This document shows, in pieces, positions 13,664 through 60,595 of a stretch of DNA of 64,000 nucleotides. The position numbers and the translations under genes were made by a program. The stretch comes from Bacteroidales bacterium UBA1208 (lineage in GTDB: Bacteria; Bacteroidota; Bacteroidia; Bacteroidales; P3). The first letter of the stretch is position 1, and every line of letters begins with the position of its first letter. The notes beneath the pieces are model-generated. The model saw only the letters and a program-made list of their open reading frames with translations, was not told where the DNA came from and made no database searches. Where the stretch lies: the NCBI GenBank assembly GCA_002309955.1, contig DBXQ01000102.1, forward strand, positions 32,096-96,095. Reading direction: 5' to 3'.

Positions 13664-14224
13664 AACCCAAATCAGTCATCAGGCTAAGAATGCCTTCGGT
13701 GGAGGCCAAAGCAGAGATTTGTGAAACGGAAAGGATAATAATAACCGTTTTATTCAGTTTTTCGTCTTGATGACTGGCAGGGGTTCTGCCCCTTTTCCTT
13801 CGCTCCTCGTTCCTCAGTTCTCCCATCGTTCTCCCATCGTTCTCCCATTTCAGAAGGAGAACTGAGGAAGAACGGAGGTCGAAGGGTGGGTGAAGGAGTG
13901 AACCAAAGACAGTGCGAAAGGAAATTAGGCGCAGGTTGGGGAGGATTCGCGGAAAGTGGCATAGGTTGAAAAGGAATGACGGAAATGATGGCACCGCTTT
14001 GGGTGTGCCTTGACAATGGAAAGCCGGAGTATCTAAAGGGGACTTCGATGAATCGCCTTGAAAGAGCATAACAAATATAGCCCAATGGCATTGCCTTGGG
14101 TATATAATCACGCACTATAAAGGCAAAAGCAGATAGAACCCACCTAAAAACAATTCGGTGTATACAAGTCGATGTGATATGTGTCGGAGCAATATCTATA
14201 TAATGCCTCATGACCGATTGGGAA
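13664..14224 (+). mobile_element. MITE-like non-autonomous element, full-length copy A
   Basis: The left end aacccaaatcagtcatcagg and the right end cctcatgaccgattggg are imperfect inverted repeats. Both match the 20-bp TIR of the small element at 54224-54422. There is no credible ORF. The conserved hairpin core lies at 13812-13867. Confidence 0.6.
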
Positions 14225-22922: not shown

Positions 22923-24203
22923 TCAACGCGAGCGTCCTATGGCAACTAAACGATCGTAGCGGTCGTTGGCACCACGGTAATAGACAAAGGCTGTGTAGCG
23001 ATTAGGGGTTTCGAAATGGTCGCCTTCCAGCACATTGGTGGCTCCCTCGGTTTCGCCTACGGGTACGAACAAAAGCTGGTAGGAATAGTATCCCTGTTTC
23101 AGGTGCAGCCGCAGGGTGTAGGCTTTCAGATCCGGACGGTATTCCATGCGAGAATGCTCATCTAAGCACCAGTTGGTGAGTTCGCCGGCCACATGCACAC
23201 TCCCGTTCATAAACGGGTAGCGCATGGGCAGTAAGAAATGGACCCACACATAGTCGGCTTCGGTCTGCTTGTTGGTGCGATCCCAAACGTTCACTTTCAT
23301 GCCTCCGCAGAGAACTTCCTCCGCTATGAAATTGGCTTTCGATCGGTCTTCGAGGGGTTTCAGCGTGGCATACCATTCGCCGCCATAGTCGGCTATCTGT
23401 GCCACATTATAGGTGGCTGTGCGAATATTGCTTATATCAAACCATCTGAAAGTGTTGCCGCAGGCAAACACATTTTCGGGTTTATGGCGGTAGCACAGCG
23501 AACTCCCTTCGAAACCGCCGAAAGGAAGCCATCGCATATTGTCTGTACGACCGTTTTGCTGCACCAATACATGGCACCACGCTGGATTAAGCGTCGGCCA
23601 CGGAACGTCGCCACGGTAATCGCGGTTCTCCGACACCGTCACATCCACTTCACGGCGCTCCCTCACGCTGCCCCCGTCGTAAGGACTCACCACCGCCACA
23701 TCGGCTTTTAGGCTACCCTCAGTCACATAAAATCTCCGGGTAAACAAAATGCGGTCAGGCTCCTCTTGGTCGAAAACAGTCACTACATAATTCCCCGACA
23801 CCAACAATTGGCTATGCTTGCCAGGGATGTATTGAAAATAATTAACATAGTCGGTCAGTGTGGTGAACGAACTGTTGTAACCTTCTATGGCTTCCTCTTC
23901 AAATCCGTTTATATATTCGTAGGGATCCAGTTCGTCGCGTTGCCAACGGCTGTCGCAATGCTCTATACGGTAACGGTAACTCCCCACCTCAGCATCCAGA
24001 ACATCGAAACGCAACAGTAGCCGGTCTTCGCTACCTAACGACAAGACAGGGGATTCTCCCTCCACACCGCCGCGGCACAACACTACCGTCTTCACCTGCG
24101 CAGACCAGATAGAGTCAGTCACTATTTGGGCATACAAACCCAATCCTTCCGACAGTGGGAGCAATACTAATAATATGAGAAACAATATAATATATTTATT
24201 CAT
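22923..24203 (-). CDS. Secreted protein, possibly DUF5103 / T9SS plug-like (low-confidence family call)
   Basis: I start it at ATG 24201-24203 (MNKYIILFLILLVLLPL...). The motif YRYRIEHCDSRWQRDEL matches my recollection of DUF5103. I could not verify this. Confidence 0.45.
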   Translation of the reverse strand: MNKYIILFLILLVLLPLSEGLGLYAQIVTDSIWSAQVKTVVLCRGGVEGESPVLSLGSEDRLLLRFDVLDAEVGSYRYRIEHCDSRWQRDELDPYEYINGFEEEAIEGYNSSFTTLTDYVNYFQYIPGKHSQLLVSGNYVVTVFDQEEPDRILFTRRFYVTEGSLKADVAVVSPYDGGSVRERREVDVTVSENRDYRGDVPWPTLNPAWCHVLVQQNGRTDNMRWLPFGGFEGSSLCYRHKPENVFACGNTFRWFDISNIRTATYNVAQIADYGGEWYATLKPLEDRSKANFIAEEVLCGGMKVNVWDRTNKQTEADYVWVHFLLPMRYPFMNGSVHVAGELTNWCLDEHSRMEYRPDLKAYTLRLHLKQGYYSYQLLFVPVGETEGATNVLEGDHFETPNRYTAFVYYRGANDRYDRLVAIGRSR

Positions 24204-24232
24204 ATAAACAAAGAAAGCACAAAATGCCTCTG

Positions 24233-24240
24233 CAAAGATA
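24233..24240 (-). promoter_or_regulatory. Bacteroidota -7 promoter box
   Basis: TATCTTTG on the minus strand, 30 nt upstream of the start at 24203. Confidence 0.45.
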
Positions 24241-24531
24241 CGAATAAAAATTAAAACCATCAAAAATAAGCACGAAAGAGCTTTTTGTAAAGGTGACGAA
24301 AGTCCCCACTGGGGGATTTCAATTGTGAAGAGGAAAAAATGAAAGCCCATCTTCAATACGCAGAATACACTCCGTCAATAGTTGTTCTATGTTGATTCAC
24401 CGTAGAACAACCGTCCCGAAAATGTCATCGGAACACAAGTGCGTTTCCTTCTGTCGTAGGTTCCTTAATGAGCGATTTGGATTTTAAGGGGAATGTTGAA
24501 CAGCTGGAGAAGTTTGTTTAATGTATCAAAT

Positions 24532-24557
24532 AAAAAAGCCTGCATTTCTGCGGGCTT
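24532..24557 (-). terminator. Likely the original tRNA-Val terminator, now displaced by the insertion
   Basis: The minus strand reads agcccgcagaaatgcaggct followed by TTTTTT. It sits immediately outside the left att repeat. Confidence 0.5.
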
Positions 24558-24806
24558 TCTATTTTGGTGGTCTGTGGCAGACCACTAAACACCGATACAA
24601 TTTATTGTGTTTCAGTGTTTGCAGCCGTTGAAAAACTTATCGAGTAACAAACGGGAAACAAAATTGTACCTTTATAGGCTTTCGGGCTGCTGTTTTTAAC
24701 TCTCAAAAACGGTGCAAAAATACAACTTTTTTCTCAATATTGCATAACTTCATCCAATATAAACAAAGAAAGCCCCGAATAGGGGCTGTTCTATGCGTGT
24801 GGGTGG

Positions 24807-25112
24807 TTATTCCTCGTCTTTGGGAATGTCCTCACCTCGTGCAAGCATTGCCAACCTCTCAACAAGCGGTCTATTCCTCGCCCTCAAATCTTGCAAATCT
24901 GCACTCACTGCCTGTTGCTTGGGGACTACATACTGCATCAGCCTTTCGAACATCTGTACTCGCTCTTTGGGTTCTAATGCTTTCAAATCTTCCTCAATCT
25001 GCTCTCGGTTGTTATCAATCAGTGCAGAAATCCATTCTCGCATGTTCTGCGTTACTTTGTTTGGTGTTCCCTTTGGTCTGCCATTGGGATTGTTGGTGTG
25101 TCCTTTTTCCAT
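24807..25112 (-). CDS. Small phage/element-associated protein (DUF5681-like, tentative)
   Basis: The N-terminus MEKGHTNNPNGRPKGTPNK is the NPNGRPKG signature I associate with DUF5681. Confidence 0.5.
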   Translation of the reverse strand: MEKGHTNNPNGRPKGTPNKVTQNMREWISALIDNNREQIEEDLKALEPKERVQMFERLMQYVVPKQQAVSADLQDLRARNRPLVERLAMLARGEDIPKDEE

Positions 25113-25134
25113 ATCTGTAAATCTTTGTTGTTTT

Positions 25135-25142
25135 CAAATATA
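25135..25142 (-). promoter_or_regulatory. Bacteroidota -7 promoter box
   Basis: TATATTTG on the minus strand, 23 nt upstream of the start at 25112. Confidence 0.4.
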
Positions 25143-25188
25143 CTTTTTTGTTCTTATCGCTCGTGCGTTTTTTTTGCCCAATTATCGA

Positions 25189-25240
25189 GCATAGTTTATA
25201 AGCATAGTTTATAAGCATTATTTATAAGCATTATTTAAGG
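25189..25240. repeat. Four tandem 13-bp repeats (iteron-like)
   Basis: gcatagtttataa | gcatagtttataa | gcattatttataa | gcattatttaagg. Confidence 0.85.
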
Positions 25241-25325
25241 TCGGGATTTTCTTGAACGTTGCTCTGTGCCTTTTTCACATTTATCCAGCACAATTATTAC
25301 GTTTACTTCGTTGCAAATAATGTAT

Positions 25326-26051
25326 TCATATTCCTAACAATGCTTTTACTCTCTTTTCGGCTGCATCAGTATTTTGTTTCAGCCTTTTCTTCTTGAATGA
25401 CGGACTTGCCCGAATTGCATACTCAATTACATTTTCCATTGATACATTAGGCTTGGTGGTGAAATAGAACCCTCTTGTGTGTTTGCTATAAATTTTCACA
25501 TTATGGAATGTCATTTGCAATTCGGCTCTCAACTTATTTGCGTAATATTCGGTAAAGTACCCTTGCAAACCACATGTCCCTATCGTTTCCGATTTCTCTA
25601 AATCTGCCCAAGAGGGATAACCGGCCATTCTCGCCCACATCAGTTTGTTGTTGGCTTTTGACACTCCATTGCTTGCACCCTCAATACTTTTCAATGCACA
25701 ATAGCCTAAAAACTTCACCTTGTCCCATTCTCTCAAATCGTCTTTACCAGCCCCAATAATCATATCCCTTTTGATTGATACACAACAATGCTTTTCTTGT
25801 ACAGGACAATTCTTATTCAGTTCTACAAGTATCTTTGCGTTTTTGGGGAAATCCCTAAAACCACAATCAAAATACATGTCGTTTTCCTCATAACTTTTAA
25901 GAACATCCTCCACATTTTTTTTGCTAATGTATGGTACAAGTCTGTTTTCGTCAATCTCTCTTACAATACACCACCTTGCCGTATTGAATAAACTGCTGGG
26001 CTTAGCCATATAGTTACGCAATAGCTCTATCGGAAATGTCAAGTAGTGCAT
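25326..26051 (-). CDS. Hypothetical protein (element cargo)
   Basis: 241-aa ORF, co-directional with its neighbours, overlapping the upstream gene by 13 nt. I recognise no motif. Confidence 0.55.
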   Translation of the reverse strand: MHYLTFPIELLRNYMAKPSSLFNTARWCIVREIDENRLVPYISKKNVEDVLKSYEENDMYFDCGFRDFPKNAKILVELNKNCPVQEKHCCVSIKRDMIIGAGKDDLREWDKVKFLGYCALKSIEGASNGVSKANNKLMWARMAGYPSWADLEKSETIGTCGLQGYFTEYYANKLRAELQMTFHNVKIYSKHTRGFYFTTKPNVSMENVIEYAIRASPSFKKKRLKQNTDAAEKRVKALLGI

Positions 26052-29727: not shown

Positions 29728-29750
29728 AAAAAAGCCCCTTAATTGGGGCT
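29728..29750 (-). terminator. Element-borne terminator just downstream of the reconstituted tRNA-Val
   Basis: The minus strand reads agccccaattaaggggct followed by TTTTT. Confidence 0.55.
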
Positions 29751-29756
29751 TCTGTG

Positions 29757-29831
29757 TGGTCTGTGGCAGATTCGAACTGTCGACCTCTTCCGTGTGAAGG
29801 AAGCGCTCTGAACCAACTGAGCTAACAGACC
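29757..29831 (-). tRNA. tRNA-Val (anticodon CAC)
   Basis: Hand-folded cloverleaf: acceptor ggtctgt/acagacc, D-arm agctcagttggttcagagc, anticodon stem cttcc/ggaag with loop TTCACAC, T-arm gacag-ttcgaat-ctgcc. Confidence 0.9.
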
Positions 29832-29877
29832 TTTTACAAAACAAGCGGAGGCCTTTGACCTCCGTGTTGCTCTTGTG

Positions 29878-29952
29878 TGATCTGTACAAGATTTGAACTT
29901 GTGACCTCTTGCCTGTCAAGCAAGCGCTCTAAACCAACTGAGCTAACAGATC
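29878..29952 (-). tRNA. tRNA-Val (anticodon GAC)
   Basis: Acceptor gatctgt/acagatc, anticodon stem cttgc/gcaag with loop TTGACAG, T-arm acaag-ttcaaat-cttgt. Confidence 0.9.
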
Positions 29953-38557: not shown

Positions 38558-38985
38558 ACCCAAATCGGTCATTAGGCTAAGCAGGTCTCTGGCAGAGGCC
38601 GTCCAGAAGCAAAGCGGTGACATGTGGAATGAAAAGTCTTATAATGACCGTTTTATTCTGTTCCCCGTCTCGATGACCGATAGGAACCCGGCTGCACTTC
38701 CTTCGCTCCTTAGTCCTCAGTTCTCCCATCGTTCTCCCATCGTTTTCCCATATCAGAAGGAGAACTGGGGTATAACGGAGGTCGATGGGTGGGTGAACGA
38801 GCAAATCAGGGGCGGTGCGAAAGGGACCCGGGTGCAGGTTGGGGAGGATTCGCGGGAAATGGTGTGTGTTGAAAAGGAATGACGGAAATGGCGGCGCTGC
38901 TTTTGTTATGTCCGGACAACGAGAAGCCGAAGTAACCCAAAGGGGACTTCTATGAACCGCCCTGAAATGGTATATCGAATATAGT
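38558..38985 (+). repeat. Dispersed repeat copy B (left TIR present, right end missing or diverged)
   Basis: It begins acccaaatcggtcattaggctaag and is collinear with copy A through gggacttc.atgaa.cgcc.tgaaa. The hairpin core lies at 38715-38770. Confidence 0.6.
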
Positions 38986-50136: not shown

Positions 50137-50174
50137 GCCCTGTCCCACGAGCCCTCATCCTAACCCCTCATCCC

Positions 50175-50355
50175 GCCCTTCCCTCGTTCGTTATTCCTCA
50201 GTTCTCCCATCGTTCTCCCATCGTTCTTCCTCCACAGAAGGAGAACTGAGGTAGAACTGTGGCCATAGCAAAGCCGAACGAGCGACCCAAATGCGTCAAT
50301 ACATGACGGCCTCTTTTGTGATAAAAGGACTTCTATAAATTGCCTTGTAGAGGCA
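50175..50355 (+). repeat. Dispersed repeat copy C (internally deleted)
   Basis: It contains the identical hairpin core (50196-50251) and the distal aggacttctataaattgccttg segment, but lacks the G-rich middle part. Confidence 0.5.
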
Positions 50356-50829
50356 AACTCTCAATAACCCCGCACTGCGAGTGTGGGGATTATCATGCAA
50401 GTATAACTCAGCGTGTCGGTGACATGCGCTCTCAAAATTGAATTAATACAACTTCTAATTATTCAAATAAATCATTGCAAAGCAATAAAGCAATGTTGAT
50501 TCACAGGATTTTTCTTTTTAAACACGAATTTTCATCAATATGTCATTAATTTAATGGTTATTACATGATGATTCAAGTCAACCTCATAACAATGTGGTTG
50601 GCATGTTTAGAAATCCCTTCAATAGAACCCATCATAATATTAACCATTTGCAAGTGATAGAAACAATCCCGACCTCTCCGCATCCCACGTCTCATTCCCC
50701 TCACTATAACCTCTATTTTGATAGTGTTTGTGTGAAAAAGATATATTCTAATTAGATGGTGTTCATTATATTTGTATAAAGAATCTTATCACAATTATTA
50801 AAAAAGGTGTCCGTATTGAAAAAAAAGCG

Positions 50830-50837
50830 TATATTTG
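50830..50837 (+). promoter_or_regulatory. Bacteroidota -7 promoter box upstream of the AT-rich two-gene cassette
   Basis: TATATTTG, about 205 nt upstream of the ATG at 51043. Confidence 0.4.
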
Positions 50838-50864
50838 CACCTTGTAAATGATGTAAGTATCAAT

Positions 50865-50900
50865 TTTTATAGATAGGTACAATTTTATAGATAGGTACAA
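50865..50900. repeat. Perfect 18-bp tandem duplication
   Basis: ttttatagataggtacaa occurs twice back to back (50865-50882 and 50883-50900). Confidence 0.85.
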
Positions 50901-51042
50901 GAGGAAGATATATATTTTTAACATGAATGGCGAAAAATAGGAGTACATAATTTCGCATGTAAGTAATAATTTGACATTAATAGAATGATGATACATTTGG
51001 ATATATATTATAAATCAAATAACCCACTAAAGAAGGTATAAA

Positions 51043-51525
51043 ATGTGTACAGATAATTCGCAAAAAGAAATTAATATTGCAAAAATGAGCGATGAAAAGA
51101 TTAAACATCTTGAATTTATCCAAGATGTAATCACACGTATGGCGCACAATTCTTTTATGATTAAGAACTGGTGCATAACAGTTACAGTTGCTTTGCTGGC
51201 AATTGCATCGAAGATAGACAATGTGGTTTTTGTAATAGTTTCCATATTTACAACTATTATGTTTTGGATATTAGATAGTTATTATATTCAGCAAGAGCGT
51301 AAATTTAGAGTTCTATATGATGATGCTATTGCACCAGACTTCCCTGTGTTCAAAATGAGTCCATCAAAAGAATTGTTGTCTTTGCCAAAGAACAAAAAGA
51401 ATCTTAATTTCTGGCGAGTATTCTTTTCAAAAACAATAGTGATGCTATATCCGACACTAATTGTAATGGTTCTTTTTGTTTCGAGTTTAACTAAATTTGG
51501 TATTATTCATACTGCTATTGACTAA
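51043..51525 (+). CDS. Small membrane protein, three predicted TM helices (candidate effector)
   Basis: 160 aa. An amphipathic N-terminus KIKHLEFIQDVITRMAHNSFMIKNW is followed by hydrophobic spans CITVTVALLAIASKI, VVFVIVSIFTTIMFWIL and IVMLYPTLIVMVLFVSSL. An alternative start is ATG 51085. Confidence 0.6.
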   Translation: MCTDNSQKEINIAKMSDEKIKHLEFIQDVITRMAHNSFMIKNWCITVTVALLAIASKIDNVVFVIVSIFTTIMFWILDSYYIQQERKFRVLYDDAIAPDFPVFKMSPSKELLSLPKNKKNLNFWRVFFSKTIVMLYPTLIVMVLFVSSLTKFGIIHTAID

Positions 51526-51559
51526 TAGTAATGATTCCTGTTTCAATTCTAACTAAAAA

Positions 51560-52492
51560 ATGAAATGTAATATGGAAAAAGTTTTTATTAGTTATCGTTC
51601 TACTAACGCAGAGCAACTCTTTAGAAATGGATGTCCAGTATTGCGCCAAGGTTCAACCTGTGATTGTTTAAAAGCCGAACATTGTTCAGTAGGAGATTGT
51701 GAATTTAAGAGGGTTGCTATTTTTGCTAATCGACAAAAATATGATTGTAAGGTAGTGCCACCGATGTTTATGCTTCCTCCACATACAATACTAAGTCCCA
51801 TGGGTTTCTACAAAAATTTGAGGGAGTTAAAACGACTCATTTCTGTCAGCGATATTTTTGTTAGATTTGAGATACAGGAAGATAGTTATTGGACTACCAT
51901 GGAACTGGAAATATGGAAGGTCTATTCTCATCATAATAGATTTTTCAATGTGTGGTTAGATCAAACTGGGGCTACTTCATATAATGAACAATTATTTAAA
52001 GAAATCAGTAAAGATGAAAAAAGATATTATCAGCGATTATTATTTTATACAGATGTGGATAACTGGCACACCCATGCATGGGGACGATTCTCCGATTGTT
52101 TTATAAACGTATGTCCAAATTGTGGAAAGTTGACCTTGTTTAGTGATAAGGCATTAGAGCACTTAATCTGTATTCAGGGTAAAATACATTGTACTCATTG
52201 CAATAATGCACAGTTTGAATTTACACATGTGAAAGGAGCTGGCGGTCTCGTACGATATAAATATTCGGGAGACTATCATTTTTCGAACATACTTTTTCCT
52301 GAAATTGTTAATACTATATTATTAAATTCAAAATTCGATGAGTTAAAAGACATGCACTTAATATGTATGTCTTATGAATCTTTCCCAGATAAAATCGCAA
52401 TGATTAAGGCCGGAAGTATTTTGATTGATGAGGTAAAAAAGGTATTAACTAATGGTGGTACGTTGGAATTACGAACATTTCAGGATAAATAA
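51560..52492 (+). CDS. TIR-like domain protein with Cys-rich insert and C-terminal zinc ribbon
   Basis: KVFISYRS (TIR beta-A strand) at aa 7-14. ISVSDIFV...DSYWTTMEL (S.W...EL, Glu115) lies at aa 94-116. The Cys cluster is C25/C34/C36/C42/C47. CPNC...CTHC lies at aa 186-215. The gene starts 34 nt after the TM gene. Confidence 0.6.
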   Translation: MKCNMEKVFISYRSTNAEQLFRNGCPVLRQGSTCDCLKAEHCSVGDCEFKRVAIFANRQKYDCKVVPPMFMLPPHTILSPMGFYKNLRELKRLISVSDIFVRFEIQEDSYWTTMELEIWKVYSHHNRFFNVWLDQTGATSYNEQLFKEISKDEKRYYQRLLFYTDVDNWHTHAWGRFSDCFINVCPNCGKLTLFSDKALEHLICIQGKIHCTHCNNAQFEFTHVKGAGGLVRYKYSGDYHFSNILFPEIVNTILLNSKFDELKDMHLICMSYESFPDKIAMIKAGSILIDEVKKVLTNGGTLELRTFQDK

Positions 52493-52616
52493 AGGAAGAT
52501 TCATATTTTTGTTTATTTACAATCTTATCCTAAGATTATGGAATAATGCATAACCACTTTATCAATTAAAGGAGGTGACATTATATTGTTGGATTTTTGA
52601 TACTTATTTTTTTAAG

Positions 52617-52736
52617 GTTACCTATAATATTAGAAACTTGAAAAAACAGGGTGTCTTCCGCCGTATCGAACCTAACAAAGGGGGACACTGGGAAGTGGTA
52701 ACACCCGAAACGAAAGACTATGCACTTAACAAATAA
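52617..52736 (+). pseudogene. Remnant of the C-terminus of an AlbA_2/RecG-like ATP-dependent regulator (tentative)
   Basis: An in-frame peptide ..TYNIRNLKKQGVFRRIEPNKGGHWEVVTPETKDYALNK* has no usable upstream gene body (stop at 52551-52553) and is followed by a terminator. Confidence 0.35.
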
Positions 52737-52740
52737 GTTT

Positions 52741-52779
52741 AAGCCACGGCAAGACCTTGCGTTTGTTGTGGCTTTTTTA
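52741..52779 (+). terminator. Terminator-like hairpin
   Basis: aagccac ... gtggctt stem followed by a T6 run. Confidence 0.5.
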
Positions 52780-52990
52780 TTTTTAAATGCTACCCAATTT
52801 CCTTAAAACTCATCCTCCATTCGGATATTGGCGCCATTTCTCCCTCTTCAAATTTCCTTTTGTATTTTCCTCTATCTTGACTTAGTGGGGTATCTTGGTG
52901 TTGTTAGGTCTTGTTGAGGGTGAGATTTTTAAAAAGATGTAGTTGTTTGGTTTTTGTGTATAATTAATTATTTATCAGTATTTTAAATGC

Positions 52991-53160
52991 ATTAGTGGTT
53001 GTATGAAGGGTGGGATGGGGGTAAAAAAGGCTGTGGTGGGGTTGTGTGTGGGGTGTTTTGTGTGGAGAGGGGAGTGGGTTTGGCGGATGGTTGATGTTTT
53101 GTTGCGACGATGAAGGACGGGATAGGAAGGTATAGGAGGGTTGCGGATAGATGTGGAATT
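52991..53160 (+). repeat. Extreme G+T-rich, C-depleted tract related to the G-rich part of the dispersed repeat
   Basis: I count only six C in 170 nt. It has many G3-5 runs (gggtgggatggggg, ggtggggttgtgtgtgggg, gaggggagtggg) and shares gaagggtggg / ggtggggtt with copies A and B. Confidence 0.5.
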
Positions 53161-60394: not shown

Positions 60395-60585
60395 CTCGAG
60401 GTCGGTTAAATTAGCGATTTGGCAGGTCTTCTGACTTGTCTCACGATTTTTTTAAGCCTTCCCATGCCGAATGGTAGCACAGTGGCATTGCAATAAAAAA
60501 ATCGTTGCAACGGACTTACAGCAGCGGGACTGTTGCCGACTTTCACGGCATTCCCTATTCACGCCTTAGTGGCGACCAAATCGGC
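60395..60585 (-). promoter_or_regulatory. Cobalamin (B12) riboswitch
   Basis: The minus strand reads aatAGGGAAtgccGTGaAAgTCggcaaCAGtCCCGCtGCTGTaag ... GCCACTGtg...ggcatGGGAAGGC ... aGTCAGAAGACCTGCC (B12 box at 60421-60435). Confidence 0.8.
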
Positions 60586-60587
60586 TG

Positions 60588-60595
60588 CAAAATTA
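60588..60595 (-). promoter_or_regulatory. Bacteroidota -7 promoter box for the riboswitch-btuB operon
   Basis: TAATTTTG on the minus strand, just upstream of the riboswitch. Confidence 0.45.

Follow-up and report, generated by a model that had tools for sequence, protein, structure and literature searches.

The closest described counterpart of the locus examined here is type V Thoeris, in which a TIR protein is paired with a three-helix membrane effector, DUF2270, since renamed ThsF (Yirmiya et al., December 2025 preprint, bioRxiv 10.64898/2025.12.03.692087). According to the same preprint, the system protects Bacillus subtilis against phage, the representative from Bacillus thuringiensis DAR 81934 signals through 3' cyclic ADP-ribose (3'cADPR), the type is enriched in Bacteroidota, and Thoeris types in general are defined by their effector. 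Our locus lies in a 64-kb stretch of Bacteroidales bacterium UBA1208 (contig DBXQ01000102.1), hereafter the window, where an AT-rich islet at ~50350-52900 carries two genes, here called open reading frames (ORFs) A and B. We read the islet as an anti-phage operon of the type V Thoeris kind that a rumen/gut Bacteroidales genome has gained by horizontal transfer, and put the probability of this explanation, mechanism included, at roughly three in four. Gene identities are drawn from homology and the mechanism from the validated Bacillus system, by analogy with which the cassette would act against phage.

ORF-A (51043-51525, + strand) is, by homology, thsF. All four PADLOC PDC-M50A models match its product almost end to end (best E value, 2.2e-39), and BLASTP aligns it over its full length with the phage-tested effector of B. 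thuringiensis DAR 81934 (35% identity; E, 3e-25), to which the ORF-A family profile also matches with an hhalign probability of 99.8%. The validated system was recovered by tracing the TIR protein listed in Table S1 of the preprint to an identical database protein, to its locus, and to the gene directly downstream; the 141-aa effector encoded there itself matches PDC-M50A at 1.8e-48. The PDC-M50A match and the full-length homology together identify ORF-A as ThsF, and since the effector decides the Thoeris type, the cassette is assigned to type V. The initial annotation, made from the letters of the sequence alone, had proposed an undescribed defense system. That claim should be dropped, since a locus that looks new by sequence alone turns out to be type V Thoeris, already described, with an effector family that is also held in PADLOC-DB as candidate PDC-M50A. 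The underlying logic that it recognized, a TIR-like protein with a catalytic-type Glu beside a three-helix membrane protein, is upheld.

The three helices initially noted in the 160-aa product are borne out by hydropathy, with hydrophobic segments at residues ~43-57, 60-79, and 128-149 and Kyte-Doolittle 19-mer peaks of 2.06 to 2.19. In most ThsF homologues the protein begins at a position equivalent to Met15, corresponding here to an alternative start at 51085. The 160-aa long form may nevertheless be real here, since two relatives carry a similar N-terminal extension. Against Pfam, ORF-A yields sub-threshold matches only. PF10028 (DUF2270) is the most frequent Pfam family among its relatives, with weak matches in 9 of 45 family members, and the validated B. 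thuringiensis ThsF (L023, 4773-5198) has no Pfam match on record in the precomputed table. The DUF2270 label thus appears to rest on remote similarity, given that the direct PF10028 matches observed in the family are all sub-threshold. The first weak Pfam match of ORF-A, 8xMP (PF24838), was dropped in favor of DUF2270/ThsF, being found in only 2 of the 45 members, and a literature search on 8xMP and PDC-M50 returned nothing relevant.

Homologues of ThsF form at least 285 clusters, and in all three long contigs sampled the thsF homologue adjoins a canonical TIR gene (ThsB_TIR or TIR_2). At one such locus (L021/L022, 3268-10214) a type I restriction-modification operon is interrupted between its hsdS and hsdR genes by thsF and a canonical thsB, and integrase genes are found in the vicinity.

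ORF-B (51560-52492, + strand) follows 34 nt downstream in the same direction, as initially annotated. Its 310-aa reading shows no hydrophobic segment by hydropathy; public gene calls and all homologues start at 51572 instead (MEKVFISYRS, 306 aa). The product consists of a TIR-like domain (51572-52075, + strand; residues ~5-172 of the 310-aa reading, with the E115 codon at 51902-51904), a four-Cys zinc-ribbon motif (52112-52201, + strand; C185-P-x-C188-G ... C211-T-x-C214), and a C-terminal alpha/beta domain (52202-52489, + strand). The TIR-like domain contains a Cys-rich segment (51629-51739, + strand; residues ~24-60), whose residues C25, C34, C42, and C47 are shared by all close family members and which we infer to bind metal. 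Distant relatives lack this segment and otherwise align end to end (hhalign probability, 99.9%; 245 columns), which marks residues ~24-60 as an insertion. The C-terminal domain belongs to no recognizable family, without a match in Pfam, PADLOC, NCBIfam, or the sequences of the PDB; it is conserved in the distant relatives and is presumably the sensor part of a ThsB protein.

The motifs picked out in the initial annotation (KVFISYRS, S109-x-W-x-x-x-E115-L, the Cys-rich insert, and the zinc ribbon) are all present, and KVFISYRS, D108-S109-x-W111-T112-x-x-E115, CPxCG (185-189), and CTxC (211-214) vary little or not at all across the ORF-B family. The zinc-ribbon Cys motif in particular is invariant in the close-family alignment and nearly invariant in the wider superfamily. 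This family is rare: the close relatives make up nine clusters (42 to 100% identity) among 5.8 billion proteins, and only 49 proteins, distant relatives included, are retrieved when 1.84 billion representatives are searched with a profile.

That the N-terminal domain is a TIR domain is indicated by profile comparison and genomic context rather than by fold comparison. An alignment of 38 N-terminal sequences, with ORF-B as the first, matches the alignment of 12 Thoeris TIR domains from Table S1 of the preprint with an hhalign probability of 97.3% (E, 2.4e-11; 104 columns). In this register FISYR aligns with the beta-A motif, SDIFVRFE...DSYWTTME with beta-C/alpha-C, and E115 with the catalytic Glu. 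Three further TIR sets return the same register at 33 to 55% probability, and reversed, column-shuffled, and ThsF controls remain at or below 0.6%. The close-family alignment alone reaches 13 to 29% against the TIR sets, since the match is broken in two by the Cys-rich insert; the high score was obtained only once distant relatives had been added. Pfam TIR_2 is matched at the expected N-terminal position by 11 of 41 distant relatives (best E value, 6e-6), and profile searches of the PDB place TIR domains at the top (flax L6, TLR2, and Cat1; E, 0.04 to 0.4). Across 29 aligned N-terminal domains of the superfamily, F9, S11, R13, T112, and E115 are invariant.

Several results weigh against a TIR assignment. 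ORF-B itself reaches no TIR or ThsB model of Pfam or PADLOC at an E value of 1 or below, TIR_2 (PF13676), TIR (PF01582), and ThsB_TIR (PF08937) included, and all eight relatives that were scored individually fall short of the TIR_2 gathering threshold (15 to 22 bits versus a cutoff of 28). NCBIfam gives nothing meaningful, and neither ORF-A nor ORF-B as a single sequence has a match among PDB sequences. The AlphaFold2 models are confident, above all that of the N-terminal domain alone (predicted local distance difference test score, 91.9), whose order of strands and helices fits a flavodoxin-like or TIR-like layout. Yet in Foldseek searches of the PDB, no TIR appears among the top 50 matches of the N-terminal model, and the full-length model recovers only weak TIR-APAZ (SPARTA) chains at E ~0.7. 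The best matches are instead the Atg7 C-terminal domain, CARF domains (Csa3 and Cad1), and the nucleoside-hydrolase folds of DNPH1, BcmB, and MilB.

These matches would suit a Rossmann-like zinc-binding protein that is not a TIR, for example a nucleotide-binding, nucleoside-hydrolase-like, or CARF-like sensor, acting with ThsF in a defense pair outside Thoeris. We consider this improbable. All of the structural matches are weak (template modeling scores of 0.3 to 0.45 and high root mean square deviations), every profile test on the sequences favors TIR while the negative controls stay clean, no variation is seen at the TIR motif positions, and all other known partners of ThsF are TIR proteins. 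The TIR fold suggested initially is thus supported by profile comparison, with Foldseek offering generic Rossmann-like matches only. The profile match and the invariant motifs, together with a relative that occupies the place of a ThsB (see below), lead us to regard ORF-B as a probable divergent ThsB-class TIR protein.

The two genes are conserved as a pair. A thsF gene lies immediately upstream of the ORF-B homologue in eight of eight lineages (the window counted, and taking the placeable relatives of at least 42% identity), the two genes overlapping by 4 nt at one extreme and lying 46 nt apart at the other. When 126 ThsF proteins are placed in a neighbor-joining tree, the nine encoded at ORF-B-type loci group together to the exclusion of all others, which indicates that the pair is inherited as a unit; an ORF-B-type partner was seen directly for seven of the nine, one is the window's own, and the partner of the remaining one was not seen. 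In one lineage (L013, 339-2631) three co-directional genes, encoding proteins of 259 aa (DUF7477), 203 aa, and 273 aa (the last two without a family), directly precede thsF and could be accessory or unrelated.

A 37%-identical relative is instead the fourth and last gene of an operon (L031, 994-4877) that encodes a ThsB (389 aa), a SLOG LD_cluster3 protein (203 aa), a second ThsB (189 aa), and the ORF-B-like protein (324 aa). This is a type III-like Thoeris operon in which the ORF-B-like gene fills the ThsB slot, and the ORF-B superfamily therefore serves as ThsB with more than one type of effector. Elsewhere (L034, 4980-5960) an ORF-B-like gene is split into two ORFs, which suggests a frameshift or an assembly error.

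By analogy with the Bacillus system, we propose that upon phage infection the zinc ribbon and C-terminal domain of ORF-B, perhaps with the Cys-rich insert, would sense a phage cue. Its TIR domain would then turn nicotinamide adenine dinucleotide (NAD+) into a cyclic ADP-ribose-type signal via Glu115, 3'cADPR being the product in B. thuringiensis. This signal may bind to a ring-shaped oligomer of ThsF, on the Arg/Lys-rich side that looks toward the cytoplasm, and the oligomer would then breach the inner membrane and so abort the infection. Invariant ThsF residues, among them R18, K27, R72, K73, and R75, concentrate in the N-terminal amphipathic helix and in a QERKFRxLYD loop. The identity of the signal is a point of caution for this scheme: of the two type V systems tested, 3'cADPR is toxic with just one (bioRxiv 10.64898/2025.12.03.692087), and the signal is thus not settled even for type V.

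A different division of labor would make the TIR the killing effector, depleting NAD+ once triggered, and the membrane protein a sensor, an anchor, or a second effector, with no diffusible signal. Many bacterial TIRs are indeed NAD+-depleting effectors (bioRxiv 10.64898/2025.12.03.692087), ORF-B keeps the catalytic-type Glu, and Foldseek returns no specifically ThsB-like match for it. We nevertheless find this unlikely, since in the validated homologous system it is ThsF that is the toxic, signal-responsive part, ThsF pairs with many unrelated TIR clades, as expected of an effector with interchangeable signal producers, and a relative of ORF-B is found among the ThsB genes beside a SLOG effector.

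Horizontal acquisition of the presumed type V operon, as the initial annotation had already suggested for a two-gene defense-type cassette, agrees with the composition of the islet. As a compositional feature without strand, it has ~31-32% G+C in surroundings of ~50-55%; in 300-nt windows, G+C is 0.26 to 0.35 over the islet and 0.51 to 0.58 in the flanks on both sides. The part from 50400 to 52740 has 31.6% G+C, against 49.6% elsewhere in the window, and is the 2.3-kb stretch of lowest G+C anywhere in it. The sharp break initially described is therefore real, and the hand counts of G+C given for it (14/60 and 35/60) are reproduced exactly. Homologous cassettes have 31 to 34% G+C in every host, even where the core flanks reach 49 to 56%, and this constancy fits a mobile defense module. 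One of them adjoins a tyrosine recombinase gene. We find no relative of ORF-B among the viral contigs of IMG/VR or the plasmids of PLSDB, and a search for inverted or direct repeats bounding the islet gives short matches only, probably due to chance.

An islet-free version of the locus was sought in related genomes, and two Bacteroidales metagenome-assembled genomes carry an orthologue (74% identity) of the 294-aa gene found downstream of the islet. Neither has an AT-rich stretch, a ThsF gene, or an ORF-B gene within 10 kb of it. The exact insertion junction cannot be defined, since in both genomes the gene with fibronectin type III (FN3) domains that flanks the islet in the window lies elsewhere and is inverted. 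Between the islet and the 294-aa gene, positions 52880-53130 are strongly G/T-rich, with a GC skew of up to 0.75 and neither an ORF nor an RNA family assigned to them.

The initial suggestion of a defense island or hot spot does not hold for the window's own genome. There the neighbors are ordinary (an FN3/type IX secretion system surface protein, unknown proteins, a TonB receptor, and MutS), and the absence of defense genes near the cassette speaks against an anti-phage operon. Defense neighbors are found only at a relative's locus (L009/L010, 5757-9245), where genes for a SIR2-TIR fusion (461 aa) and an nSTAND1 NTPase (694 aa), in this order and directly upstream of the homologous cassette, form a small defense cluster. 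That the cassette is a non-defense or decayed passenger, a small membrane protein and a zinc-finger protein in some other role or simply inactive genes, would agree with these ordinary neighbors but is very improbable, as both ORFs, the only substantial ones in the islet, are intact, the pair is conserved over 42 to 100% identity with invariant catalytic and Cys residues, several assemblies of the species retain the cassette, defense genes do accompany it in the relative, and ThsF homologues are validated defense effectors.

Compared with described type V systems, the putative operon shares the two-gene organization, a TIR protein plus a protein of ~140 aa with three membrane helices; it differs in a ThsB of a rare clade that TIR models miss, with a Cys-rich insert in the TIR domain, a zinc-ribbon motif, and a C-terminal domain in addition. 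Gene order is thsF-thsB here and thsB-thsF in Bacillus, with both orders seen among homologues. In PADLOC-DB v2, the PDC-M50A model is matched by ORF-A and by the validated Bacillus ThsF alike, whereas PDC-M50B, which is matched by the TIR partners of other ThsF homologues, is not matched by ORF-B. A PADLOC rule that needs both models would presumably miss this locus.

With type II (ThsB plus Macro-TM) and type VII (ThsB plus SLATT) Thoeris, the cassette would share a TIR signal producer and an effector that spans the membrane and kills by damaging it, but it has no Macro or SLATT domain, and ThsF is a different and much smaller family. Type III, in which several TIR genes accompany a SLOG effector, is where one relative of ORF-B occurs; the cassette in the window has a single TIR-like gene and no SLOG. 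Searches of Pfam, PADLOC, and NCBIfam give no SIR2, SLOG, or Macro match in either protein, as would mark type I or II, and neither islet ORF matches the CD-NTase or pyrimidine cyclase models of Pfam and PADLOC that would point to CBASS (cyclic oligonucleotide-based antiphage signaling system) or Pycsar.

What is new here is a very rare ThsB clade that is missed by curated TIR and ThsB models and is tied to its own ThsF lineage. More tentatively, ORF-B and its few relatives might be an unrecognized ThsB clade with a four-Cys, probably metal-binding, insert in the TIR, whose zinc ribbon and new C-terminal domain serve as a phage sensor and which diversifies in step with a ThsF clade of its own. 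ThsB and ThsF might then use a signal other than 3'cADPR or a different trigger, and such systems would go undetected by Pfam, PADLOC, and probably also by DefenseFinder. Thoeris censuses that start from TIR detection will undercount systems of this kind, while effector-first searches with ThsF find Thoeris systems that TIR-first ones miss. For a new phage-sensing module, the Cys-rich insert within the TIR domain and the zinc-ribbon domain offer concrete candidates.

To the left of the islet, the repeat copy initially noted is a partial copy (~50150-50367, + strand; core hairpin, 50190-50257) of a dispersed intergenic repeat of ~370 nt. The repeat occurs in three copies in the window, with fuller ones at 13707-14080 and 38610-38984; its conserved core folds as a hairpin (GTTATTCCTCAGTTCTCC / GGAGAACTGAGGTAGAAC), and it matches no Rfam family. 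A likely promoter region (50767-50999, + strand) upstream of thsF contains TAnnTTTG boxes at 50767, 50830, and 50992. The single box at 50830 to which the initial annotation pointed does exist, but it is one of three within 300 nt upstream, and among eight on the + strand of the AT-rich stretch; such boxes are common in AT-rich DNA and the one at 50830 therefore carries little weight. Between the boxes lies a perfect 18-nt tandem duplication (50865-50900; TTTTATAGATAGGTACAA twice), which could be an operator or a slippage product.

On the right, a terminator-like hairpin (52741-52774) was confirmed, and the match behind the proposed gene remnant is weak. A short ORF (52575-52736, + strand; 53 aa) shows 71% identity over 21 aa to the Fic family by tblastn (E, 9e-3) and may be what is left of the C-terminal winged helix-turn-helix (wHTH) region of a gene for a Fic-family protein or wHTH regulator; it is followed by the intrinsic-terminator-like hairpin with a T run at 52741-52784 (+ strand).

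Elsewhere in the window, a second and milder low-G+C stretch (~40%) is present at ~23600-25800, and a cobalamin riboswitch at 60404-60595 (- strand; 106.8 bits). A tRNA gene at 29878-29952 (- strand) is accompanied by a tRNA-like copy at 29748-29835 that is 81% similar and lies 121 nt away.

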